Below are positions 5,125 through 56,187 of a stretch of DNA of 64,000 nt, piece by piece. Source of the stretch: a virus. Lineage: Duplodnaviria > Caudoviricetes. Under the pieces are notes generated by a model. That model searched no databases and was not told where the DNA came from. It saw only the letters and a program-made list of their open reading frames with translations. The stretch is taken from IMG/VR virus record IMGVR_UViG_643348505_000006. The stretch is one strand, 5' to 3'. Position numbers and translations under genes: made by a program. Each line of letters starts with the position of its first letter. The first letter of the stretch is position 1.

Positions 5125-5149
5125 AAAACAGCCGGTAGGGTGACCGGGT
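5125..5149 (-). promoter_or_regulatory. Late-promoter activator box (copy upstream of tail-tip operon)
   Basis: AAAACAGCCGGTAGGGTGACCGGGT, nearly identical to 16209-16233 and 24087-24111; dyad CCGGT-N6-ACCGG. Confidence 0.75.
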
Positions 5150-5224: not shown

Positions 5225-5740
5225 TCAGGAGAACAGGCCAGGAAACTGGCTGCGGGTCATTCGGCCGCCCGGTGACTTCTCTTCTTCGATGTCCTGTCGG
5301 CTGAAACTCAATGTCACCTCGCCTGCGGTCAGGTCGGCGCTGACGATCTGCATGTTGCGATACTCGATTTCCACATAGTCCGGCGACGATGCCAGCACCA
5401 CGGCCATGTGAATGGTGGCAAGCGTCGTGAAGGAACGCAGCACCTTGGCAATATCATTATCGACATTCTCCAGCACAAGATTGCCGGAGGTCGGAGCGTC
5501 ATCGAGATCCGACGGAAGGATGGTCGAGGCCAGCACGAAGTAAAATGGCTCCGTGCTGTCCATCCAGGTCGAGCGCGTGCCATACATCAACGGCTCGTCC
5601 GACAGCCGTTCGGTATTGTCGGTCGAAAGCCGGACAGGTTCATCGAGATCCGGGTGGGTGATGTAGAACAGCGCGACATAGACCTCGTCCGTCATGCCCA
5701 TTTCCATCGCCAGCCGGGCATTGAGGGAAACACGTCTCAT
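5225..5740 (-). CDS. Tail protein, DUF1833 / gpL-like
   Basis: MRRVSLNARLA..EVYVALFYITHPDLDEPVRL; lies between the distal tail gene and NlpC/P60. Confidence 0.75.
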   Translation of the reverse strand: MRRVSLNARLAMEMGMTDEVYVALFYITHPDLDEPVRLSTDNTERLSDEPLMYGTRSTWMDSTEPFYFVLASTILPSDLDDAPTSGNLVLENVDNDIAKVLRSFTTLATIHMAVVLASSPDYVEIEYRNMQIVSADLTAGEVTLSFSRQDIEEEKSPGGRMTRSQFPGLFS

Positions 5741-6159: not shown

Positions 6160-9100
6160 CGGGCGATCCCTTTCTTCTTGAGGCCGTATTGCTGCTCAAT
6201 GGTCTTGGAGGCTTTGCCACCTTTGGTGCCGATCGCATCCCCTGTCATGTCCGCAATCACGAACTTGGTCTGGCGGCGGCCACTCGCATCCGTGGTCTGT
6301 TCGGCCTGAACATTGGCTTTCGAATAATTGTGAACGGTAATGTTGCCGCCACCATTGTCGTTCGACGACTGAGCAGCGCCACCCGATCCACCAACCACGC
6401 CACCCTTGTCATAGCCGCGATAGCCGAGCCGCATGGCATCGACCGTGGCCGCACCGCCCGCCCGCGCCACGTCGTCCTGGCTCCAGACGACTTCGCCCTT
6501 ATGCACGACGCCAGCAGGTTCCTTGCGGCCGCCTGCTCCGGTGTAGCCGCCACTATCAAATCCCAGAAAGGAACTGAACGTCGTGTTTGGACGCCAGAAA
6601 ATGGAGGTCGGATCGACAGAGCCACCGAACAGCGACGACATCAGATTGGTCGTTCCCTTGGAAAAGGACGATGCGAGACCACCAAAAATGTTCTGGCTAC
6701 CACCGCCAGCAGCACCGGCATTTCCACCGCCTGAGATCAAATTGGTGAGACCGTTGCCGAGCTGGCCAAGGCCATTGCCAAATGTGCCAAGGTTCTGGTT
6801 GGCGGCAGCCGTGCCCGTCGAAAACCGATTGAGGGCATCGGCAGCCTTGGTGCTGGACGATTGAATGCCCGGCCATAGGGATGACTGCGCCGAGGTCAGG
6901 CCCTTATCCCAGGAACCACCGCCCATGCCGGCCTTGTCACCGCCGAGGTCGAAATGCATGGTATCGAGCGCGCCGTATTTGCCCTTGCCGCCGCCGAAAT
7001 AACCACCCCAGCGGAACTGGTTGGCCAGCTCCGGATATTTCTCCATCTGGACGGAACGCGCCGTCTGGGCAAACTTCTCGTAAGTGCCGAAGCTGCCGGC
7101 GTCCTGGTAATTGCCAAGCTGCTTGCCACTGGCGAGATCGGTCAACTGAACGTCGGTTGCCAGTCCCTTGCCGTGGAAGCGCGGATCGCCAGCCCGAAAG
7201 CCGGAAATCGCATCGACCTTGTATCCCGGCGTGCGCTGGGCAGCGGTATTCAGGATATCAGTCAAACGCGGATCGACGCCACTGCCCTTGTAGTTGCCGG
7301 CGCTGGACATCGACTGGCCGAGGCCGGTAAGGGCATTGGCAGACGAAGTGCCCGCCGTGTTGGTGTTGGCGGCTTGAAGCCCGGCCGGCGCAATGCCGGT
7401 CCCGGCCACGCCGCCATTGATCATGACCGTGCCGGCCGTCACCGCCATGGAGCCGACAGATTTGCTATCGCCGAGTAGGTTGCTGGCAACACCCTTGACG
7501 CCCCCAACATCCGCCAGCGTGCCGTAGTTTGAACCGGTCAGCGCGTTCTTGAGCGGGTTCTTCACCGCGAGATCCAGGACGGTCTTTTGAATGTCCTTCG
7601 AAATCCCTTCAAGCGCCCCGGAAATGTCTCCCGACGACAGGCCGTCAACGATCCCGTCGATGGCGCTTTCGGATGATTTACGAATGCTGCTCCAGGCTTC
7701 ACTGGTTCTGGAAAGCTCGGCATTCATCTGCGCCTGGGCACTCGCACCACGCCGGATCTGGTTAGCCTGGGCACTGGTGGCCTCCAAGCCAAGCTCGCGG
7801 ATCTTCAGCTCGGCGTCGTATTGCGCCAGCAAACCCGTCTGTTCGGTCTGGCTTTTGCCGGCAATGCCGATCTGAAAACCAAGCCGGTCATTACCCGTCT
7901 TCTGGTCACGCAGATAGGAGGCGACATTTGCCTCTCGCTGGGCAGCGGCAAGACCGGAATAGCCGGATCGAAGCTGCTCGATCACGGCCAGCAACTGTTC
8001 CTTCTCCTTGCCCTCCGCCTTGGCCGCAGCTGCGATCAGCGGGCGCAACTGGATTTCCGATTCCATCTGCGTTTGGGCCTGAGACGCGGTCAACGTCCCG
8101 GCTGCCACCTGGGCGGCAAGCCGCGCCCGAACGGCCACCTCGGAAGTCATATCGGCGGCTTGCGTCTGGGACGATGCAATCGTTTCCTGAATGACACGGT
8201 TGCGGGCCTGAGCTGCGGCGGCCGACACCTGGTCGGCGCTCATCTGCTGGTCGGCAAGCTGCAACCGGGTTCGCTGAGCCGTTAGATCAGCCCGCACAAG
8301 TGGATTGCGTTCGTTCTGGATCTGGATGTCGAGGCGGTCCAGTTCGATCGCGCGGCTCTGGCGATTGTTGAGCGCATCAAGCGCCCGCGTCTGCGCCTCG
8401 ATGCCAACCGTAAGCTTGGCGCGGTCCTCTGGGCTAAGGGACTGGATGGTCAGGCCGGATTGCATGGCCGCGATGCTATTGGTCAGGCTCTGGCGCTGAG
8501 CCGCGTCAGCATTGGCGGGCACCGCATCGGCCGCACCCAAGGCGGCTTGGCTCTTCCGGATTTCGGCAGCCTTACGCTGGCGTTCCGCCTCGGCAGCCTG
8601 TTCGCTGGCCTGTTGCGCTAACGCGGCATCCAGTTCAGCCTGAATTTTATCAGCCCCTCGCGCGCCACGCCCTGTGGGTCCACCGACAGAAAGCTGGTTT
8701 CGAAGGCCTGCAATCCGTTCTGCCAGGGTCTTGATGCCAGCTGCCTTATCAACTGTTTTTCCCATCCAATCGAAGGCATTGCTGGAAGCCGTGCTAACCC
8801 CGTTCCAAGCCCGACCTAGCGCGGTCGTCGCTTCCGCAGCCGACGCCAGTTGCGGGGGTAACGCCTTGAGCAACACGGCTTGCGCTTCGGATTGCCGGTT
8901 CTGCGCCGCCAGATTGGTCGCCTGCTTGGCCGTGGCCGCATCGATCAACCCATATTGCTGATAGAGCGTCTGGGCTGCCTTTGCCGGATCGGCGAACAGA
9001 TCGGCCAGCGCCTGGCCAGCCGAGGCGGCATCCGTGCCAATCGTCGCGGCAAAATCCTTGCTGATCGAGATCAGGCCTTCGTAATTCTCATTGCCGATCC

Positions 9101-14692: not shown

Positions 14693-15100
14693 TTAAGAGA
14701 ACTTGACCCACACGCCCTGGTCATCGACATCGAAGATCGTGCCGGCAACAGGACGCGCGGAGGAATTGGAGGTTTTGGCGACCGTCTGATCGTCGGCCGC
14801 ATAGCAGCTCGATCCGATGTCGGCCAAGGTGATGGCGTCCGTCGATGCCGAATTGGCAAACCGGAAGATGCCAGTCTTGACGTCGGCGCGGACACTGCCG
14901 TCAGCGCCAGCATTAACGATCTGGCGCTCGTTGCGCCCAACAACCTTCAGGGTCGCCGTCGCACCGGCCGGGACCAGCATGCCGGTCGCATCGATCGCCA
15001 CCATGGCACCGGCAAAGAGGGTAGCCGATGCCTTAACCGGGAAATTGCGGTTATCGCCGCTCCGCTGGGCGGTGTTGCGGTCTGCGGTCAGAGCCGTCAT
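14693..15100 (-). CDS. Capsid decoration/cement-like protein
   Basis: MTALTADRNT...DDQTVAKT...VDDQGVWV; lies between gpI and gpT. Confidence 0.65.
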   Translation of the reverse strand: MTALTADRNTAQRSGDNRNFPVKASATLFAGAMVAIDATGMLVPAGATATLKVVGRNERQIVNAGADGSVRADVKTGIFRFANSASTDAITLADIGSSCYAADDQTVAKTSNSSARPVAGTIFDVDDQGVWVKFS

Positions 15101-15630
15101 GCGTCACCGCCTTTCTTGGCCTTGAGGAAGGCTTCCTTGCTGAGACCCATCTGGCTCATGACCGCCAGATCCTCCGTTGTCAGATCCGCGTCAGTGCCAT
15201 TGCCGGGCGGCGTAACCCCGGCACGCTGGGTTGCCGTCAGAACCGGAGATGCATCAGCAAAAGCCTTGAAGGCTGCGGCATCTTTCTTGTGCAGGTCAAG
15301 GCCCCAGGACTTCAGTGCCGGCGCAAGCCTGCCTTCGGTGATCGCCCGGTTAACGGCCGTCTCAGCCTCCTCGCCTTCCATTTTGGTTTGAAGGGCCTTC
15401 AAACCGGTCTGGAGCGCTGTGACCTGCTCGATTGGCACGAACTTCGTGGGATCAACATCGGCGCGCGCGGAGTTAATCGCAGTGACGATCTCGGCGGGTT
15501 TGGCGGTGGCCGACAGACCAGCCGCAGCGGCAATCGCCGCATTGCCGGTCAGCACACTGTTGATCGCGATGAGAATAGCATTCTCATCCGCGTCCTCGGA
15601 AAGCCCCAAGGCGGCGGCAATTCTCTTCAT
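15097..15630 (-). CDS. Nested in-frame scaffold protein (Mu gpZ-like)
   Basis: In-frame ATG (MKRIAAALGL) preceded by AGGA RBS inside gpI, the same arrangement as Mu I/Z. Confidence 0.65.
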   Translation of the reverse strand: MKRIAAALGLSEDADENAILIAINSVLTGNAAIAAAAGLSATAKPAEIVTAINSARADVDPTKFVPIEQVTALQTGLKALQTKMEGEEAETAVNRAITEGRLAPALKSWGLDLHKKDAAAFKAFADASPVLTATQRAGVTPPGNGTDADLTTEDLAVMSQMGLSKEAFLKAKKGGDA

Positions 15631-16179
15631 ATCGTTTTCCTGGTTGGGTTGAGCGCAATTTTGCTGAGCACTGGCGGCCACGGCCGCAAGTTCGAGATTG
15701 GGCACATTGGTCAATCCGGCCGAAATCAGCCGCAGCACCTGGCCGGCCTTATCGTGCTGGTAGACGGGGGAAATGTAGCGATACTCGCCAGCCCGGATGG
15801 CCTGGGCTGCCTTGTCCGTCCATTCGACGAGACCATAGAGGCCGTCGGGACGGGCGTCGAGCTGCTTGATCCAGCCGGCAGCCGGAGCCTGGCCACCCAC
15901 ACCGGGCACGGCCGAGAACTGCGTCTGATGATCGTAATCGACCACGAGGTCGGTGCTGCCGGCGCGCTGCTCGGTGGAAGCAATCACGGCCCGCATGCCT
16001 TCAAGACCATTGGTCGAATAGGGACCACGACCGTCGCGGCCGGAAAACGATCCGATCGGGAGCAACATGATCCAGTGTCCGGAAGAGCCTTCGGCAGGCA
16101 AAGCGGCATCCGCCCCACCCAGCATCACAGCATGGGCGGCAACAAGGCCGGAAAAGAGGTTTTGGGTGCGTTTCGTCAT
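15097..16179 (-). CDS. Mu gpI-like prohead protease
   Basis: VVDYDHQT, APAAGWI, VEWTDKA..I..GEYRYISPV, AGLTNVPNL. Confidence 0.93.
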   Translation of the reverse strand: MTKRTQNLFSGLVAAHAVMLGGADAALPAEGSSGHWIMLLPIGSFSGRDGRGPYSTNGLEGMRAVIASTEQRAGSTDLVVDYDHQTQFSAVPGVGGQAPAAGWIKQLDARPDGLYGLVEWTDKAAQAIRAGEYRYISPVYQHDKAGQVLRLISAGLTNVPNLELAAVAASAQQNCAQPNQENDMKRIAAALGLSEDADENAILIAINSVLTGNAAIAAAAGLSATAKPAEIVTAINSARADVDPTKFVPIEQVTALQTGLKALQTKMEGEEAETAVNRAITEGRLAPALKSWGLDLHKKDAAAFKAFADASPVLTATQRAGVTPPGNGTDADLTTEDLAVMSQMGLSKEAFLKAKKGGDA

Positions 16180-16208
16180 GGGGCGAGATTGCCCCGGCCC
16201 GATAAAGT

Positions 16209-16233
16209 AAAACAGCCGGTAGGGTTACCGGGT
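16209..16233 (-). promoter_or_regulatory. Late-promoter activator box upstream of gpI
   Basis: AAAACAGCCGGTAGGGTTACCGGGT; -10-like CAATCT at 16191-16186. Confidence 0.75.
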
Positions 16234-16442
16234 GAGTTGCTTGCCGTGACGATGCGGCCAACCAACTCATATCACGACGGGGGAGAGAGGCAAGGCTTCG
16301 AATTTGAAGCCGATTTGAAGCCCTTGGGCGCGTTTGAGGGCTTTGTCCTGCGTCACTGGCCGTTCAACCGTCTTGTGCGCGTCTGTGGCGCTTAAATTCG
16401 TCCTCCTTGAAATCCTTCTACACCGGGAGTATCTTTGGCTGT

Positions 16443-16537
16443 GGCCATCATGACAACCGGGAAATCGCACGTCCGGTTTGGTGCCCTGCTGAGGCAGGCT
16501 ACTGTTACGGGGAGAGTGGCGTACCCCCTTGATGGCC
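16443..16537 (-). ncRNA. Candidate structured RNA (four-way junction) immediately after the gpF stop codon
   Basis: 8-bp closing stem GGCCATCA/TGATGGCC enclosing three hairpins (GGGG/CCCC, CCTGC/GCAGG, AACCGG/CCGGTT). Expression is unknown. Confidence 0.45.
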
Positions 16538-16544
16538 GCATCAC

Positions 16545-17840
16545 CTAAATCGTCCCACTGATAAGCTCGTAAGTCTTCTCGTCTGTCAGGACGCGGGCTT
16601 CAACCAGCCCCGCAGTTCGGATCGAATTGGTGACGATCGTCTGGGCTTTTCCCCCTGGTGGCCGGGCCTTATCTGCGAAATCGACCTTCACAACGATCTT
16701 GGCCAGACGCGGGTCTTGGCCGCTGTCGAACACATAGAGAAGCGCACCGTCGCGCTTATCCCGCAGGACCGCCCTCGGCCGGCTGAGATTGGCCGGCAGT
16801 TGCCGAAGCGCCGCCATATCGACGGTCTTTCCCACTCCGGCCTTGGCATCGCGGATCATATGCAGAGCAGCTTGCTGGGTCAGGGTGATCGCGCCTGACT
16901 GCGGCGCAATCCCGCCCTGGGCAAGAGATGCCAGGACATCCTCGGACAAAGCGCCAACCACGATGATGGACCGGTCCACGCGCCCGCCCGCTGTGGCCGC
17001 ATCAAACCACCTCGCAAAGTCATCGCCGAGCGGCTTGACCAGCCAGTCCGGATCTTTGTTGACCTGGGCGGCCATGATCGGCGGTGCATTGATCAGCTTT
17101 TCCGCCGCATCGAAGGCCCGAAAGCCAGCCTTGCCGGGATTGTGGTCCCAACCGGGATCGATGCCGCGCGGGATCATCCGGACTTCGCCAGTGCGCTTGT
17201 TGGTGAAGGCAACGAAGTCATCTTCGGGCGGCGTGAACTTCAACTCACCCCGCATCCGCTCGACATCCCGATCCGACAGGCTTTGCAGCGTGCAGCGGCA
17301 ATTCCAGCCACAAGGCGGTGCCCATGTGTCCCAATAGGGATGATCGACGGGCAGGCAAAGATTGTGGCGCTTGCGGTGTTCCGGCCGGGTGTGGTCGTCC
17401 AGAATACAGACATAGCGCAGCCAAGGCCGGCGCGCCTTGTTGCGCTCAAAGGCCGCCCAATGACCCGCCGCATAAGAGACGCGAAGGTTCACGTCGAAGA
17501 TCAATTGCAGGCGACGGGTCGAGCCGAGCTGCGCTTTGCGAAGCTCCCCTGTCACTGGATCGGTCACGTCCTGGACGCCCCACCAGCCCTTAGCCTGGAG
17601 AACCGGCGTCACCTGGCTGGCGAAATCCCGAAACGTCTTGCCCTCTTCAAGGCTGGTTTGAAGCCCGTCGAAAAGGTCTGTGAGGATATCGAAACCGGCC
17701 GACTTGGCGACCGTGAACTGTTTGGCATGCTCCTCGGCATAAACGTCCTGCCAGGAAAAGGACGGCGCGAGCTGTTCGCCGCGCGCCTTCAGAGCCTTGA
17801 TGGCATCGTCCGGCTTCAGCGCTGCGATCGTCGCCGTCAT
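16545..17840 (-). CDS. Mu gpF-like minor head protein with C-terminal PBECR-like (RelE/colicin-type) nuclease extension
   Basis: RLQLIFDVNLRVSYAAG..RYVCILDDHTRPEH..WDTWAPPCGWNCRC; about 130 extra aa containing ALHMIRD..LPANLSRP.AVL..LLYV..IVVKV..NSIRTAG. Confidence 0.85.
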   Translation of the reverse strand: MTATIAALKPDDAIKALKARGEQLAPSFSWQDVYAEEHAKQFTVAKSAGFDILTDLFDGLQTSLEEGKTFRDFASQVTPVLQAKGWWGVQDVTDPVTGELRKAQLGSTRRLQLIFDVNLRVSYAAGHWAAFERNKARRPWLRYVCILDDHTRPEHRKRHNLCLPVDHPYWDTWAPPCGWNCRCTLQSLSDRDVERMRGELKFTPPEDDFVAFTNKRTGEVRMIPRGIDPGWDHNPGKAGFRAFDAAEKLINAPPIMAAQVNKDPDWLVKPLGDDFARWFDAATAGGRVDRSIIVVGALSEDVLASLAQGGIAPQSGAITLTQQAALHMIRDAKAGVGKTVDMAALRQLPANLSRPRAVLRDKRDGALLYVFDSGQDPRLAKIVVKVDFADKARPPGGKAQTIVTNSIRTAGLVEARVLTDEKTYELISGTI

Positions 17841-19393
17841 GAGAGCGGCTCATCGGCTTCACCGGAGATCCGGGCCGAGAACGCAGCACGAGCGAGTTGC
17901 TCGACAAAGGCATTGACGCCCATGGCGCTGACTTGAGCCGCAAGGATCGCCTGTGCCTCCGCGATCGACGTCGCTTTGCTCAATGCCTCGGCCAAACCAT
18001 CGACCACGGGCGGTGTCATCTCCTGCCAATCATCAGCCGAGATCTGGCCGGCTGCCGCATCGATAGCATCGCGATCGGCGCGGGCCATCTGGCTTTGGGT
18101 GGCAATCGCAGGCGGTGTGCTGTCCGCCTGATCGGCAGGCGGCTGTGCTGCCGCTGCGGCCGGCTTCAGGATTTCCTCGTCCTTGCCTGGGTCAGGCAGG
18201 CCAATCTTGTCGCGCATGGTGGACATGCCGACTTTCAAGCCGAGCGGGACGAGCTTGACGACATTAGCAACCAGATTGTTGACATCGATATCGTCGGGAC
18301 GTCCGATGCAGATCTTCGGATAATTTTTTCGGGGGCCACGATTGAACGATACCAGTGGCACGACAACATCCCGATTTAGGGTCGCGGCCAACTGGCGGGC
18401 ATCAGCCCGCTCGATATCTTCACGCACACCGTCATGCACCTTGCCGACCGCATAGCCGCCAGCCTGTGCATCGGTGGTAGCCGTCTGTCCCAGGACAAGC
18501 TTGGATATTTGCCGGTCCAGCCAGTCGGACCGCCGTTCATAGAGATCGAGGCTACCGGACAATTGCGCCTGGACAAACTCAATCGCCATGCTTTCTGGCA
18601 CGATGGCGGCATAATCGGCCGCGATGCTGGAGACGGCCCGCAGCAGCTTTTCTTTGTCGGGCTCGCTTGCGCCAGCGCCATATTTGCCCAGCCGCAACGG
18701 CTGGCCATAAGCCTCGCAGAAGATGGCCCAATCCGAAGTCGTGAAGGTCTTGAATAGATAGGTCCAAGCCGCTGATCGGGCCAAGCCGCCACGAATGGTC
18801 AGGCCCGATTTGACCTTGGCGCGATGCACAATCCATTTGGCTGGCCAGAGATCTTCGTCACCGGCCGGACCACGCAGTCTCAAGGTCTCTCCATCATTGC
18901 GATCGAATCGGAACCATCGTGGATCATTCCATTTGAGCGCCCTGATTGACCACTGGCCTTCGGATGTGTCCCAGATGATTTCGGTGGCGCTGAAGCTCTT
19001 TCCGACGGCATCGAGGATATCGAACAGCTCGTCCTCAAAGGTATCGCGGGATATAAAGTCGCGCACGAGGTCGGCATCGCGGACATCATCTGCACTATCG
19101 CTGGCTGCCTCAACCGTGATGTCCAGTCCGGCGACCTGTCGTTTGCGCACACCCAGAACACCAGCATAATGCTCGTTGCGTTCCTCCATGTCCTCCGCAA
19201 GCTCAAGGTAGCGCTCCGGATCGCCATCAATGGCCTCGCGCAGAATGCGGGCAAGTTTCTGGGGTGTCAGACCGGGTGCCTGATGATTGCCAGCCGCTTG
19301 GCGAACGCCAGTCGTCGTCGGCCCGCCTTGCTCCTGCTTCATCGCGGCCTTGACGATCGGGTTGCCATACTGGTCGAGGATCTGGGCCATCAA
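17837..19393 (-). CDS. Portal protein (Mu gp29, DUF935)
   Basis: YLELAEDMEER..H..VLGVRK, YGQPLRLGKY, QISKLVLGQT. Confidence 0.93.
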   Translation of the reverse strand: MMAQILDQYGNPIVKAAMKQEQGGPTTTGVRQAAGNHQAPGLTPQKLARILREAIDGDPERYLELAEDMEERNEHYAGVLGVRKRQVAGLDITVEAASDSADDVRDADLVRDFISRDTFEDELFDILDAVGKSFSATEIIWDTSEGQWSIRALKWNDPRWFRFDRNDGETLRLRGPAGDEDLWPAKWIVHRAKVKSGLTIRGGLARSAAWTYLFKTFTTSDWAIFCEAYGQPLRLGKYGAGASEPDKEKLLRAVSSIAADYAAIVPESMAIEFVQAQLSGSLDLYERRSDWLDRQISKLVLGQTATTDAQAGGYAVGKVHDGVREDIERADARQLAATLNRDVVVPLVSFNRGPRKNYPKICIGRPDDIDVNNLVANVVKLVPLGLKVGMSTMRDKIGLPDPGKDEEILKPAAAAAQPPADQADSTPPAIATQSQMARADRDAIDAAAGQISADDWQEMTPPVVDGLAEALSKATSIAEAQAILAAQVSAMGVNAFVEQLARAAFSARISGEADEPLS

Positions 19394-21033
19394 AAGCCTC
19401 CACGTTTGTTTCTGAGCGACGACATGCGAAACGGTCGCTCATCGTCTCTGGAGGGTGTTTCTGACGAGCGGGACGCAGACGGCGGTGCTGGTTGGTAATC
19501 GAATTCACACCACTGCATACGGCTTGCGAAATGGGCCAAGGCCAGCGCGATCGCATAGTCCCCGTGGCGTTTCTTGTTTTTCTCGCCCGTACGCGCTTCC
19601 GGCACCATTGGAATGCCGCGTATCACTTTGACCAAGCGAAGATCGGAAAGATGGTCTGCGTTCTTGGAAATGGAAATTGCCGCGTCTTCAAACGCGGTTT
19701 TAAGCGGCGGCATATGGATACGATACCAGTCCTGCGAAAACTTGATCGCGTGAACCAGACCACCTTCATTGTCCTTATCCCTCAGGCCAAAAAGCCGCCC
19801 CATGTCTTCGGCAACTGTCCAACCCATGCCGGTGGCGTCGAAGGCCGCCCCGACCAAACGCGGGGCACGTCGAAGGATTTTCTCTGTGATTTGTTTTTGT
19901 TCGTCGCCCGGCACCTTGCGCAGTTCGACGGTCAACGCGCTTTTGCGATTGAGCTTCTTGTCAATCGCCAACAGTTTCCCGACCGAAAGGTCAGCAACGC
20001 GCGCAAAGTCAAAACCGAAGGCATGCATCAATGCCGGATCAAGCTTGTCCAGCGCCTCGTCCAGCTCCTCCATGAATGGAGCTAGCAATTTTGCGCGTTC
20101 AAGTTCCGACAGATGCAAATAGTTGTCAGGAAGATCAAGCGTCAGGACCGGAGCATCCGACGTCATGCGCGCTTCGATCAGGGGCGAGGTCAACCAGGCG
20201 CCAGACCCCATGGAGGCAACACAGAACAACTCTTCGTCCGCACCATCGCCGTAAAAGTCGATGATGTCTTCGCGCCAGTCGGCTTCGTTTTCAGGGGACC
20301 ATTCCTGATTGGTGACGAGGCAAATCCGCTCGTAGAGGCCATCCCGCAGCGCGTCGTCAAAGTCGATCTTGATGTGATCGTATTTGTTACGACCGCCGAG
20401 GATGTTTTGGATCTGGAGGTTAAACTCGTTTTCCGCGCCATTGTGAGTGGAGCAAACGACAACTTGGCCGCCCCACATCAGGAACGCCAGTGCGGCCTTC
20501 AGCAGCTCCGGCAAGCTATCGACGAACGCCGCCTCATCGATCATCACCACACCCTGCTTACCGCGCAGAGTGCGTGGCGCTGAAGAAAGGGCCAGCACTT
20601 CGAACCCTGAGGCAAAGCGAATACGGAAGGCCTGAATAGAGCGATCACCGTCTTCGGTCTTATCTTCGAAGACGAACTCTTCCATTTCCATGGCGGCCAA
20701 CGAGTAGGCACGAGCCCACATCGCGCAGGCGTCGATAAACTCGCGGGTCATCTCCTGGCTATAGGAGATATACATCACGTCCATGCCACCGGCGCTCTTT
20801 GCCCTGGCGGCGCGCAATGCGGCATAGGAGGCAAAGCCCCATGTCAGACCGATACGACGGCTTTTCTCAACGAAGAGAACCTTGCAAGCCGAGCTTTCAA
20901 GGAGACCAACTGTCCGCGACTGATACGGCAATAGTGCCTTGCCAAGGCCTTCCTTCCCGACCAAGCCGAGGACGGCATCTGTAGAAAACCGTCGAGCTTT
21001 CGCCCATTCTTCCTTGCTGACAGGACCGGTCAT
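19390..21033 (-). CDS. Terminase large subunit (Mu gp28-like)
   Basis: EKSRRIGLTW (Walker A variant), VMIDEAAF, STHNG, FDATGMG, HGD. Confidence 0.92.
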   Translation of the reverse strand: MTGPVSKEEWAKARRFSTDAVLGLVGKEGLGKALLPYQSRTVGLLESSACKVLFVEKSRRIGLTWGFASYAALRAARAKSAGGMDVMYISYSQEMTREFIDACAMWARAYSLAAMEMEEFVFEDKTEDGDRSIQAFRIRFASGFEVLALSSAPRTLRGKQGVVMIDEAAFVDSLPELLKAALAFLMWGGQVVVCSTHNGAENEFNLQIQNILGGRNKYDHIKIDFDDALRDGLYERICLVTNQEWSPENEADWREDIIDFYGDGADEELFCVASMGSGAWLTSPLIEARMTSDAPVLTLDLPDNYLHLSELERAKLLAPFMEELDEALDKLDPALMHAFGFDFARVADLSVGKLLAIDKKLNRKSALTVELRKVPGDEQKQITEKILRRAPRLVGAAFDATGMGWTVAEDMGRLFGLRDKDNEGGLVHAIKFSQDWYRIHMPPLKTAFEDAAISISKNADHLSDLRLVKVIRGIPMVPEARTGEKNKKRHGDYAIALALAHFASRMQWCEFDYQPAPPSASRSSETPSRDDERPFRMSSLRNKRGGF

Positions 21034-24086: not shown

Positions 24087-24111
24087 AAAACAGCCGGTAG
24101 GGTAACCGGGT
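24087..24111 (-). promoter_or_regulatory. Late-promoter activator box upstream of lysis genes
   Basis: AAAACAGCCGGTAGGGTAACCGGGT, abutting the stop codon of the Mor/C-like gene. Confidence 0.78.
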
Positions 24112-38533: not shown

Positions 38534-38832
38534 AATTTTACATTCCTCCCAGAGCGTGAAGCTCCCACAGAAAATGGCGCCAGCAGTCGCTTGAAGCAAA
38601 GAACGCCACGAGACCAAAAACTCGCTGCGCAGGCTCTTCGCCACGCAAATTGCTGAACTGGGCGTTCAATTTGAAAGTCAAATTTGGCTCTCCGATGACG
38701 TGGGGACCCATGACCGCATTACAAGAGAGTGTTGGTTTCCACGCAGAACTGAGCCGGTTAGGCGGATAATTTCCATTGAGAATTGAGCCATGTGAACCTT
38801 CCCCCAACGCGGTGAGCGACGGGGGCAACGGA

Positions 38833-40359
38833 GTGATCCACATGGGACTTTTAAACATCATCCGTCGGATGGCGCTGCGTGAGAAGCAGTCGATCCGCGA
38901 GATCAGCCGGCGTACTGGGCTGTCACGTAACACGATCGCAAAGTATTTGAACGCTGGCACGATCGAGCCGACGTTTACGGTACCGGAGCGACCGAGCAAG
39001 CTTGATCCTTTCGCCGACAAACTTTCTGGCTGGCTGAAGACCGAGGCAGGGCGGTCGCGCAAGCAGCGCCGAACGCTGAAGCAGCTTCATGCCGATCTTG
39101 TGGCTCTCGGCTTTACCGGCTCTTATGGCCGGGTCGCCGCGTTCGCCCGTGAGTGGCAGGCTGAGCAGCAGACGGCGGGCCGCGGCATATTCGTACCGTT
39201 ATCATTCCGCCCAGGTGAAGCATTCCAATTCGATTGGAGTGAAGATTATGCCGTGATCGCTGGCGAGCGTGTGAAGCTTCAGGTCGCACATATCAAGCTA
39301 TCGCACAGTCGGGCCTTTCTGGTCAGGGCTTACCTGCTGCAAACGCACGAGATGCTCTTCGATGCTCACTGGCACGGCTTCCGGGTCTTCGGCGGTGTGC
39401 CTGCGCGAGGGATTTATGACAATATGCGCACAGCCGTTGATCGGGTCGGCCGTGGCAAGGAGCGGCAGGTCAATATCCGTTTCCTGGCGATGACGAACCA
39501 CTACGTCTTTGCGCCCGAATTCTGCAATCCAGCGGCCGGTTGGGAAAAGGGTCAGGTCGAGAAGAACGTCCAGGATGCCCGACCACGCTTGTGGCAACAG
39601 ATGCCAGACTTTCCAAATCTGATGGCGTTGAATGACTGGCTGGAGCAACATTGCCAGGAGCTGTGGCGGGAGACGCTGCATGGCACCTTGTCAGGCACGA
39701 TCGCGGATGTTTGGGCCGATGAGCGGGCAGCATTGATGGCGCTCCCTGCCATGTTTGACGGCTTCGTCGAGCAGAGCAAGCGCGTCTCACCAACATGCCT
39801 GATCACCTTCGAGCGTAATCGTTACAGCGTGCCAGCATCATTTGCGAACCGGCCCGTCAGCCTGCGGATATACCCAGACCGACTGGTTGTTGCGGCCGAG
39901 GGAAACATTCTGTGTGAACACGCGCGGATTATTGAGCGCAGCCACAAGCTACCGCGAACGATCTACGACTGGCGGCATTACCTTGCCGTCATCCAACGCA
40001 AGCCCGGAGCCCTACGCAATGGCGCACCGTTTTTAGAATTACCGTCTGCCTTTCGACAACTACAGGAGCAGATGCTTCGTCGTCCTGGCGGTGATCGTGA
40101 GATGGCCGATATCCTTGCCCTTGTCCTTCATCACGACGAACAGGCCGTACTCCGTGCTGTGGAGTTGGCTCTGGATGCGGGCGTGGCGACCAAGACGCAT
40201 GTAATGAACCTGCTGCATCGGTTGATTGACGGCAAGACCACCGATGGTCCCGATATCGACACGCCACAGGCGCTAACCTTGTTGCGTGAACCCAAGGCCA
40301 ATGTCGAACGCTATGACGGTTTACGTGTCCGCATCGTGGGAGGTCGCCATGCGTCATGA
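38833..40359 (+). CDS. istA: IS21 transposase IstA
   Basis: [23 protein letters not shown]; [21 protein letters not shown]; GTG start about 38833. Confidence 0.95.
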
Positions 40360-41143
40360 TCCTGCCAGTGCTGCCGTCGTCATCATGCTGCGTAGTCTGA
40401 AGATGTATGGCATGGCCCAGGCCGTCACGGACCTGATCGAGCAAGGTGCTCCGGCTTTCGACGCTGCCGTGCCGATCCTGTCCCAGTTACTGAAAGCCGA
40501 GGTGGCCGAGCGTGAGATCCGCTCCATCGCCTATCATATGAAGGTCGCCCGCTTTCCTGCCTACAAGGACCTCTCCGGCTTCGACTTCGCCACCAGCGAA
40601 ATCGTTGAGGCGACGGTGCGCCAACTGCACCGATGCGACTTCATGGACGGAGCACAGAACATTGTCCTCGTTGGCGGGCCGGGCACAGGCAAAACACACG
40701 TCGCGACCGCGCTTGGTGTCCAGGCCATCGAACATCACCGCCGAAAGGTCCGCTTCTTCTCGACCATCGAACTGGTCAATGCGCTTGAGCAGGAGAAAGC
40801 AAAGGGCAAGGCAGGTCAGATCGCCGAGACCTTGGTTCGCCTCGATCTGCTGATCCTCGATGAACTCGGATACCTTCCGTTCAGCGCCTCAGGTGGAGCG
40901 CTGCTGTTCCACCTGTTGAGCAAGCTTTATGAGCGCACCAGCGTCATCATCACCACCAACCTCAGCTTCAGCGAATGGGCGACCGTCTTCGGCGACGCCA
41001 AAATGACGACCGCGTTGCTCGACCGCCTGACCCACCGTTGCCATATCCTGGAAACAGGAAACGACAGCTTCCGCTTCAAGGCCAGTTCGGCCGCAGCAGC
41101 ACAGAAGAGAGGAGAAAAGACCAGCACCTTGACTAAAGCCTGA
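40349..41143 (+). CDS. istB: IS21 helper ATPase IstB
   Basis: [36 protein letters not shown]. Confidence 0.95.
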
Positions 41144-41215
41144 GCAGAAAACCATACTCAGAGGTGGCTCACTTCTCGGTGGAAAAACCGGCTCAGTTCC
41201 GCGTGGAAACCAACA

Positions 41216-42331
41216 GTCGAACACATAGAGGAGCGCACCGTCGCGCCGATCGCGCAGCACCGCCCTTGGTCGGCTGAGATGGGCAGGCAACTGCCTGAGT
41301 GCCGCCATATCGACAGTCTTGCCTACCCCTGCTTTAGCGTCGCGGATCATATGCAGGGCTGCCTGCTGGGTCAGGGTAATGGCACCCGACTGCGGCGTAA
41401 GCCCGCCCTGGGCAAGCGAGGCCAGAACATCTTCCGAGAGAGCACCAACCACGACAATGGAGCGATCGACACGCCCGCCAGCCGTCGCCGCATCGAGCCA
41501 GCGGGCAAAGTCATCGCCGAGCGGCCTGATCAGCCAGTCGGGATCCTTGTTGACCTGGGCGGCCATGATCGGCGGCGCATCGATCAGCTTTTCCGCCGCA
41601 TCAAAGGCCCGAAAGCCAGCCTTGCCGGGATTATGATCCCAGCCTGGATCGATGCCGCGCGGGATCATCCGGATTTCGCCCGTGCGCTTGTTGGTAAACG
41701 CCACGAAATCATCATCAGGCGGCGTGAACGTCAATTCACCCCGCATGCGCTCGACATCGCGATCCGACAGGCTTTGCAAGGTGCAGCGGCAATTCCAGCC
41801 ACATGGTGGCGCCCAGGTGTCCCAATAGGGATGATCGACGGGCAAGCAGAGATTATGCCGCTTGCGATGTTCCGGCCGGGTCCGATCATCGAGAATACAG
41901 ACATAACGCAGCCACGGCCGGCGCGCCTTGTTGCGCTCGAAGGCCGCCCAATGGCCGGCGGCATAAGAGACACGAAGGTTCGCGTTGAAGATCAGCTGCA
42001 GACGGCGAACCGATCCAAGCTGCGCCGGCCCCTGTTTGCCGGTCAGCGGATCAGTCACCTCCTGGACGCCCCACCATCCCTTGGCCTGCAGGATGGGTGT
42101 GATGTCCTTGACCGCTTTATCGACGGATATGCCGTCTTCAACGACGGTTTGAATGCCATTGAACAGGTCAGTCAGGATGTCGAAGCCAGCGGATTTGGCA
42201 ACAGTGAACTGATTGGCATGTTCCTCGCCGTAAGTGTCCTGCCAGGAAAAGGACGGCGAGAGTGTTTCACCGCGTGCCTTCAGCGCCTTGATGGCGTCTT
42301 CGGGTTTAAGGGCGGCAATCGTCGCCGTCAT
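41216..42331 (-). pseudogene. gpF truncated by IS21 within its nuclease-like C-terminal domain
   Basis: Matches prophage 1 gpF up to ..GALLYVFD, then reads into the IS right end (CWFPRG..). Confidence 0.9.
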
Positions 42332-55935: not shown

Positions 55936-56187
55936 GAGCACCCCCCGATTTTCGCGGTCACCCGGTAACCCAACCGGCTGTTTTGAATTGGGTAAACACG
56001 CCAATAGTCGTGACGCATCGGCTGAAATTTCGCCTGGGTATCAAGCAGATCGCGCAAATGCCCCCACAAACCCTTGTGGCTGTTTTGGACCGGACGAATC
56101 AGTGGAGCATAGCGGTCTCGGAGCTGCCCAAACGCAGCGCCGAGACCTGTCATCACCCCGCAACAAGGATACGAGGAGACGATCCGA

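Follow-up and report, generated by a model that had tools for sequence, protein, structure and literature searches.

Effector domains fused to MuF occur widely in temperate phages, and RNases of the BECR fold (like that of barnase, EndoU, colicins E5 and D, and RelE) are major weapons in bacterial conflicts. What, then, would guard a prophage and its host when such a domain is carried on a virion protein and no immunity gene follows? The question is raised by a Mu-like prophage in a 64,000-nucleotide (nt) stretch of caudoviricete DNA (IMG/VR record IMGVR_UViG_643348505_000006, hereafter the window), in which the head morphogenesis and virion pilot protein gpF (MuF; 431 amino acids, aa; 16545..17840, minus strand) ends in a putative RNase domain. 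A small RNA gene of about 105 nt that folds as a four-way junction (16437..16545, plus strand) lies against the 3′ end of gpF. We report that this RNA is conserved, that it has been gained, lost and diversified together with the gpF domain, and that it may be the domain's dedicated partner.

The RNA was delimited by covariance models, covariation and mismatch statistics. Its 95-nt core (16443-16537) starts 7 nt past the gpF stop. In plus-strand letters it is closed by an 8-bp stem (GGCCATCA, 16443-16450, with TGATGGCC, 16530-16537) that encloses three hairpins: arm A (AACCGG/CCGGTT, loop GAAAUCGCACGU, 16455-16478), the variable arm B (CCTGC/GCAGG, 16485-16498) and arm C (GGGG/CCCC, loop AGAGUGGCGUAC, 16509-16528). 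The closing stem extends on the plus strand to 16437-16450 and 16530-16545, and in this extended form the 3′ end of the RNA overlaps the gpF stop codon. Two of the loops, of 12 nt each, are nearly invariant among copies (motifs GAAAUCGC and GUGGCGUAC). An earlier note, made from the letters of the window, had described this closing stem and the three hairpins; they are present, and the minimum-free-energy fold (ViennaRNA) reproduces the four-way junction on both strands. The folding energy is ordinary for this G+C-rich DNA (z = -1.15 for the gpF strand, -1.27 for its complement). At about -1.2, thermodynamics alone cannot tell the element from chance, and it is comparison that does.

In 53 aligned copies, 91.6% of cells were paired, versus 74.3% in shuffles, and both-side (compensatory) changes were found at 20 of the 23 base pairs. 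The covariation score was 0.45, as compared with 0.14 for shuffled alignments and 0.03-0.07 for slid partners, the 53-copy alignment being one that was fitted to the covariance model. An independent, unguided MAFFT/RNAalifold analysis of 10 sequences gave compensatory changes at 12/23 pairs, with changes in all helices. Covariation, which had been proposed as a check on the downstream structure, is thus positive. The window copy, the only one in this genome, reached 117-121 bits when scored with models R1 and R2, at E of about 1e-34 to 5e-40. The topology had been called tRNA-like without tRNA consensus bases, and this description holds: ARAGORN found no tRNA gene in the window or in 17 related loci, the window copy had no tRNA match in Rfam 15 (sole hit snoZ256, E=2.1, 15.7 bits for a threshold of 50), and neither a T-loop nor a D-loop consensus is present. 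A pairing between the two loops (CGC in one, GCG in the other) was set aside, as both loops are invariant and covariation offers no test of it.

On the gpF strand, the non-Watson-Crick pairs in the helices are most often A.C or C.A, with 51 cases versus 22 of G.U or U.G, and 13 of these 22 fall at one doubtful pair. Since an A.C on one strand is a G.U on the other, the folded strand is the antisense of gpF. A consensus scan predicts a sigma-70-type promoter for this strand (16407..16435, plus strand), composed of a -35 box TTGAAA (16407-16412), a 17-nt spacer and a -10 box TATCTT (16430-16435), which puts the predicted RNA start at about 16442, where the extended stem has its foot. An equivalent TTGnnn-16/18-TAnnnT is found in most copies, ending 7-14 nt upstream of the core stem, and a match at 8 or more of 12 consensus positions occurs in 62% of 52 distinct copies versus 1.4% of control windows. 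As judged by its sequence, the RNA is a separate gene, antisense to and convergent with gpF, with its own predicted sigma-70-type promoter. The earlier view of a cis-encoded element on the gpF strand, within the gpF transcript, does not survive the mismatch statistics and the conserved promoter, which both give the opposite strand.

A promoter-like sequence also exists on the sense strand (TTGTCA-17-GATACT, 16428-16456, minus strand), with a -10 region in common with the promoter of the antisense RNA. Together the two may act as a bidirectional promoter from which transcription also starts towards gpI, the next gene downstream of gpF. As the main promoter of the element the sense-strand sequence was rejected: the corresponding spacer is 23 nt in phage B3, and UGACA is a conserved RNA junction in both of the RNA classes described below.

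More than 50 copies of the RNA were found, in prophages that belong to several phyla. Searching with the gpF protein brought relatives in 80 genomes (related loci are cited here by L number), and BLAST with the element then matched nine; at some of the matched loci gpF is only 36-40% identical to that of the window and the element about 80%. Two short DNA patterns added about 40 copies from IMG/VR viral contigs, and models R1 and R2 reached distant ones in a Methylophaga metagenome-assembled genome (MAG), an Elusimicrobia MAG, Nitratidesulfovibrio, a Reyranella MAG and Hansschlegelia. In Alpha-, Beta- and Gammaproteobacteria, in Desulfovibrionia, in the Elusimicrobia MAG and in Pseudomonas phage B3, the RNA comes immediately behind the stop of gpF. 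The B3 copy (57 bits, E=4e-17; L151 2957-3086, NC_006548 about 18950-19079) coincides with an annotated 32-aa hypothetical gene, ORF34, located between the F-like and G-like genes; ORF34 is probably not a protein gene. The RNA is rare, with 1 copy in 150 other genomes sampled from the order. A gapped pattern used to scan metagenomes was too loose: of 80 loci that it retrieved, 1 was a true copy. The window element itself had no match at the DNA level in the phage collection. Neither the RNA family nor its pairing with the MuF-C domain was found in Rfam 15 or in full-text literature searches; the domain itself is known.

This domain covers residues about 285-431 of gpF (16548..16988, minus strand) and is common to 47 proteins, all of them MuF fusions of about 430 aa. 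It also occurs in phage B3 and in Ralstonia phage RS138. Four residues are each kept in at least 90% of 46 homologs: H327 in the LHMIRD motif (codon 16860-16862), T404 in TNSIRT, N405 and R408 (the T404-N405..R408 stretch being read from 16629-16631). The AlphaFold (AF2) model of the domain (predicted local distance difference test, pLDDT, 92) shows helices followed by a five-stranded sheet, and the top list of a VIA-align search with it was composed mostly of BECR/RelE-fold RNases (BrnT, Z 5.2; colicin D, Z 4.6; RelE, HigB and CdiA-CT). Iyer et al. (2017, PMC5512222) assigned the MuF C-terminus of Mu-type gpF to the PBECR clade, where they noted an active-site His in its first helix and, C-terminally, a Thr/Ser. 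They predicted an RNase, or an RNA binder when inactive, phage Mu's own MuF-C being called inactive. H327 and T404 of the window fit this active site. The protein part of the finding was therefore already known: the gpF C-terminal domain is, by its sequence, probably of the known MuF-C/PBECR (BECR) type, a conserved part of many gpF proteins and a putative RNase. The resemblance to PBECR pointed out in the earlier note is real, with the conserved His and Thr and BECR-like structural neighbours, and with Pfam support below threshold and none from Foldseek.

Other effectors are found on close relatives of this gpF, namely an ADP-ribosyltransferase (ART) domain in L048 (4760-5359, E=1.8e-13) and PBECR2 in L085 (4700-5242, E=8e-17). 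They show that the gpF C-terminus is polymorphic.

We then asked how RNA and domain are associated among loci, calling class 1 those of the window type. In about 47 of 57 RNA copies, a gpF open reading frame (ORF) with a class-1 domain ends in or just before the RNA. A domain-bearing gpF ends 92-386 nt upstream of it in L067, L147, L041 and L057; six copies have no such domain nearby (see below), and the remaining ones are too near the locus edge to judge. Conversely, the class-1 RNA was found at 0 of about 75 gpF loci without the class-1 domain; no RNA follows the ART-type gpF of L048. The 75 loci comprise 26 loci with a class-2-like domain and about 50 without any such domain. At the latter, where the earlier note had feared that the structure might be just as common, RNA was never found (0 of about 50). 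In phage Mu, F overlaps G by 4 nt, which leaves no room for it.

The C-terminal domain has been swapped repeatedly on the tree of the N-terminal MuF domain (FastTree, 109 rows), with at least 6 well-supported changes in domain presence, a number that rises to 16 on the best tree. Wherever an independent pair is informative, the RNA changes in the same way as the domain, and never in the opposite way (sign test, p about 0.03-0.06).

The association extends to a second class. Many gpFs that were thought to be domain-less carry a distant homolog of the domain keeping the His, LP, DG, K and TxSR motifs. In six of these class-2 cases (L045, L049, L054, L055, L062 and L072), gpF is followed by a different conserved cloverleaf of about 110 nt, located right after the gpF stop on the minus strand of each locus. 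Its closing stem measures 7 bp, and it has three arms, the last with a 7-nt loop, as well as a variable region of 5 nt. This RNA is antisense too: it has its own TTGAAG-17-TATACT-type promoter, and its invariant U.G pairs are valid solely on the antisense strand. Model R3 matched the class in Bilophila (74 bits) and in a Sororendozoicomonas MAG; beyond the six loci, its positions are L091 4794-4899 and L096 5746-5879. The class-2 RNA is more tRNA-like than that of the window; since the first arm and the UGAC junction are alike in both, the two classes look homologous. At two loci where R2 fails, L098 (about 5321-5401, minus strand) and L076 (about 5252-5329, minus strand), the position behind gpF is taken by an antisense four-way RNA in which an acceptor-like stem is combined with a tRNA T-arm of canonical form (GGTTCGAGTCC, GGGGGTTCGAATCCCC). 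Within the Rfam clan the best match of this RNA is tRNA-Sec, on the antisense strand, with 18 bits for a threshold of 47, and tRNA finders do not call it. Each domain class thus comes with its own cloverleaf class, the pattern expected of cognate partners.

The place where an immunity gene could be expected is not filled by a protein. As the earlier note had judged from the window, and as is now seen among relatives, no ORF in the 365-nt gap between gpF and gpI is conserved in frame, including the part of the spacer beyond the RNA and its promoter (16180..16406). Two candidate small immunity ORFs, 16267-16470 and 16392-16544, were rejected: what similarity they have to relatives tracks conservation of the nucleotides, and in L036 and L038 the reading frames are broken.

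Taken together, these results lead us to favour, tentatively and with somewhat less than even confidence, the view that the RNA is dedicated to the MuF-C/PBECR domain as its partner and most likely neutralises it as a mimic of tRNA. It would be transcribed from its own sigma-70-type promoter opposite gpF, would end over the gpF stop codon and would fold as a tRNA-like four-way junction with its two nearly invariant 12-nt loops. As a tRNA-mimicking pseudo-substrate, it would bind the RNase-like domain, possibly toxic, and neutralise it in the producing or lysogenic cell, taking the role that an immunity protein plays for other MuF C-terminal effectors; antitoxin, decoy and substrate are forms that this partnership could take. 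Expressed from a constitutive-looking promoter, it might also protect the lysogen against the same domain injected by related phages. Such protection would explain the orphan and duplicated copies of the RNA as counterparts of orphan immunity genes.

Several observations weigh against this interpretation. Six RNA copies lie away from any gpF or domain: L120 (7401-7535), L125 (1036-1168), L135 (4216-4348), L146 (9438-9570), L121 (1831-1968) and the tandem pair of L138 (about 6677-6812, unscored by the covariance model, and 6790-6927), the latter being the exception to the rule of one RNA copy per prophage. In L120, L125, L135 and L146, the RNA, bounded on either side by an intrinsic terminator, has a primase/DUF6456 module and the small terminase gene as neighbours and lies upstream of the latter. 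These four proviruses are related to each other and are a different kind of prophage, without the Mu-type head module context; no MuF or MuF-C was found in their records, which are 42-70% complete. In L121 the RNA adjoins the gene of an AMP-binding enzyme. A PBECR-like domain in the gene convergent with the orphan RNAs was sought and rejected (hhalign probability <1%). The histidine of the domain is missing in L042, L081 and L095; the last two keep the four-way RNA, with 8 compensatory pairs between them, which fits binding and not a need to neutralise catalysis. No RNA is present in the 43-nt gap after the true PBECR2 gpF of L085. The RNA stem is followed by no terminator or U-tract, so that the 3′ end is not fixed by the sequence. 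The fold assignment is weak as well: gpF of the window matches Pfam MuF_C (PF18819) with E=0.11 and 13 bits for a cut-off of 27.6, its homologs reach MuF_C in 14/46 cases (best E 0.0035) and PBECR3 in 10/46 (best E 0.0016), all below threshold, Foldseek of the domain model against the PDB gave no match, and the BECR-fold structural matches have Z of at most 5.2 (all <6). Finally, domain and RNA are adjacent, and they could have been gained and lost together simply as a linked cassette, with no tie in function.

A fuller picture, which we regard as doubtful but worth stating, is that Mu-type phages and their lysogens are guarded by RNA, and not by an immunity protein, against a virion-borne RNase domain of the BECR fold. 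A convergent gene would encode this guard, a pseudo-substrate that mimics tRNA and has diversified with the domain into cognate classes, and the orphan copies would possibly provide RNA immunity against the effector of incoming phages.

The RNA could instead be a tRNA mimic directed at the host and independent of gpF, that is, a decoy for anticodon nucleases or tRNA-targeting defences, or a sponge for a host factor; the gpF junction would then be a permissive insertion site and the cassette would be inherited as a block. Copies without a MuF-C domain in their record, the constitutive-looking promoter and the tRNA-like features would suit such a role, and the near invariance of the loops across host phyla, while the domain falls to about 30% identity, suggests a conserved host target. 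A self-sufficient RNA should, however, sometimes outlive the loss of the domain, which is not what the domain-less gpF loci show, and the RNA class switches when the domain class switches. We consider a host-directed role unlikely on these grounds, with a small chance left to it.

Regulation of gpF in cis appears rather improbable. The RNA would act as in type I toxin-antitoxin (TA) systems or through convergent interference, lowering leaky or late gpF expression or insulating operons, and its fold would be mainly a stabilising 5′ domain. For an RNA that acts purely as antisense, a conserved four-way junction and invariant loops would be superfluous; in addition, the orphan copies overlap no gene and the distance of the RNA to the gpF stop ranges from -20 to +386 nt. 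What speaks for regulation in cis is the convergent layout, with a stem overlapping the gpF stop codon, and the lack of a terminator, so that transcripts may run into the domain-coding part of gpF. Antitoxin RNAs of this 3′-overlapping antisense kind occur in type I systems of Bacillus prophages.

There is little likelihood, in our view, that the RNA is a cofactor or cargo of the domain, in which case a complex of MuF-C and RNA would be packaged in the head, injected with the DNA and active early in the next host. This idea draws on the fact that gpF homologs are virion proteins ejected with DNA, on the RNA-binding role predicted for inactive MuF-C (PMC5512222) and on the RNA being kept by domains without the histidine, but a packaged cofactor needs neither a constitutive promoter nor orphan copies. 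A sense-strand structure in the 3′ untranslated region of the gpF mRNA, serving as a processing, stability or autoregulatory site, is hardly credible despite the position of the element directly after the stop codon and the promoter-like TTGTCA-17-GATACT that overlaps it on that strand, since the excess of A.C/C.A over G.U on the gpF strand (51 versus 22), the class-2 invariant pairs that are U.G solely on the other strand, the conserved promoter pointing the opposite way and the weak tRNA-clan matches on the antisense strand all speak against it. A Put-like antiterminator or a riboswitch, considered in view of orphans lying between two terminators before late genes, was dropped because the RNA strand is the antisense one.

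The genes around gpF are those of a Mu-like head module, in the order portal-F-protease-capsid. The window contains two Mu-like prophages, and the late genes of the first, to which this gpF belongs, are on the minus strand. Upstream of gpF are an ORF of 547 aa in the position of the large terminase (19390-21033, minus strand; no Pfam hit) and the Mu portal gene (Portal_Mu in Pfam; 17837-19393, minus strand), which flanks gpF. gpF itself, found in the ORF list, passes Phage_Mu_F (PF04233) with 61.6 bits for a cut-off of 29.6 (E=1.4e-16, residues 60-185) and matches phrog_220, 'minor head protein and DNA pilot' (E=2e-87, residues 3-396). Downstream of it is gpI, a Mu-like prophage protease/scaffold (15097..16179, minus strand; Pfam Mu-like_Pro, E=1.9e-97), followed by a virion protein gene and by the gpT capsid gene (Mu-like_gpT). 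The gpF of prophage 2 (40889-42331) is 88% identical to that of prophage 1 over residues 1-373 and is interrupted at codon 373 by an IS21-type element, which encodes IstB (40286-41143, plus strand) and a 527-aa transposase-like ORF with a Mu-transposase C-terminal domain (38776-40359, plus strand). Prophage 2 lacks the remainder of the gpF domain, the RNA gene and the head genes; owing to this cut and the deletion of the remainder, it could not be used as a control for the link between RNA and domain.

The spacer between gpF and gpI has further features of its own. A conserved block at 16290-16340 (GGGCTTCAAATCGGCTTCAAATTCGAAGCC, minus strand) is also kept in relatives with the class-2 RNA, and its plus strand reads as two TTGAAG motifs. 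A 25-nt box (ACCCGGTAACCCTACCGGCTGTTTT) at 16209-16235 is one of four near-identical boxes of 25-27 nt (ACCCGGTNACCC(T/A)ACCGGCTGTTTT) with a dyad CCGGT-N6-ACCGG, located at 16209-16235, 5125-5149 and 24087-24111 (all minus strand) and at 55958-55984 (plus strand). Those of prophage 1 lie before gpI and at two other sites on the late-gene strand, ahead of other late operons. The boxes are probably binding sites for a late activator of the Mor/C type; they also resemble weak terminators. Directly before the gpI start codon is a hairpin, GGGGC-AATCTC-GCCCC (16180-16200), without an obvious Shine-Dalgarno sequence, that is conserved in the closest relatives (alignment A5).

To our knowledge, all known inhibitors of BECR RNases are proteins. 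If the proposed partnership is true, it would provide the first RNA immunity factor or partner for the BECR fold, paired class by class, and a function for the long-enigmatic MuF-C domain of Mu-type phages. Since the RNA family is absent from Rfam and labelled as a tiny ORF in the reference phage B3, a concrete correction of annotation follows, and the B3 copy makes the hypothesis directly testable.

With respect to known systems, the closest protein precedent is MuF-C/PBECR (Iyer, Burroughs, Anand, de Souza and Aravind 2017, J Bacteriol, PMC5512222), in which the C-terminus of a Mu-type gpF likewise carries a domain, there of BECR type and here probably so, whose first helix contains a His and whose C-terminal end has a Thr close by. 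No associated RNA gene is described there, in contrast to the present locus, and the window protein stays below the Pfam cut-offs of MuF_C and PBECR3. In the polymorphic MuF toxins that temperate phages encode (Jamet et al. 2017, BMC Biol, PMC5576092), an N-terminal MuF domain is combined with exchangeable C-terminal effectors, as it is here (including the ART of L048 and the PBECR2 of L085). Those systems have a same-strand downstream gene for a protein immunity factor, whereas the gene found here is a convergent RNA gene and no ORF is conserved.

Type III TA systems (ToxIN, CptIN, TenpIN) offer a likeness of principle, in that an RNA would neutralise an endoribonuclease directly and that RNA and protein classes diversify together. 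Their antitoxins are tandem repeats located upstream of the toxin, in the same operon, and cut by the toxin. The RNA described here is a single cloverleaf, downstream and convergent, with its own promoter, and the protein is a virion structural protein of an unrelated fold. Type I TA systems of Bacillus prophages, such as txpA/RatA and bsrG/SR4, have a convergent antisense RNA overlapping the 3′ end of the toxin gene. They resemble the present arrangement in that a prophage gene with a possibly harmful product is met at its 3′ end by the convergent gene of a small RNA, and differ from it in that the toxins are small membrane peptides and that the antitoxin acts by base pairing and not through a conserved fold.

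As to the RNA itself, the window copy departs from tRNA by its 12-nt loops, by the lack of T-loop and D-loop consensus and by the lack of an anticodon-type loop. Its four-way junction topology is nevertheless common to tRNA, tRNA-Sec, mascRNA and the tRNA-like module of bacterial Y RNAs, and the class-2 and L098/L076 variants show further tRNA-like traits: an acceptor-like stem of 7-8 bp, a variable region of 5 nt, and a T-arm whose loop has 7 nt.

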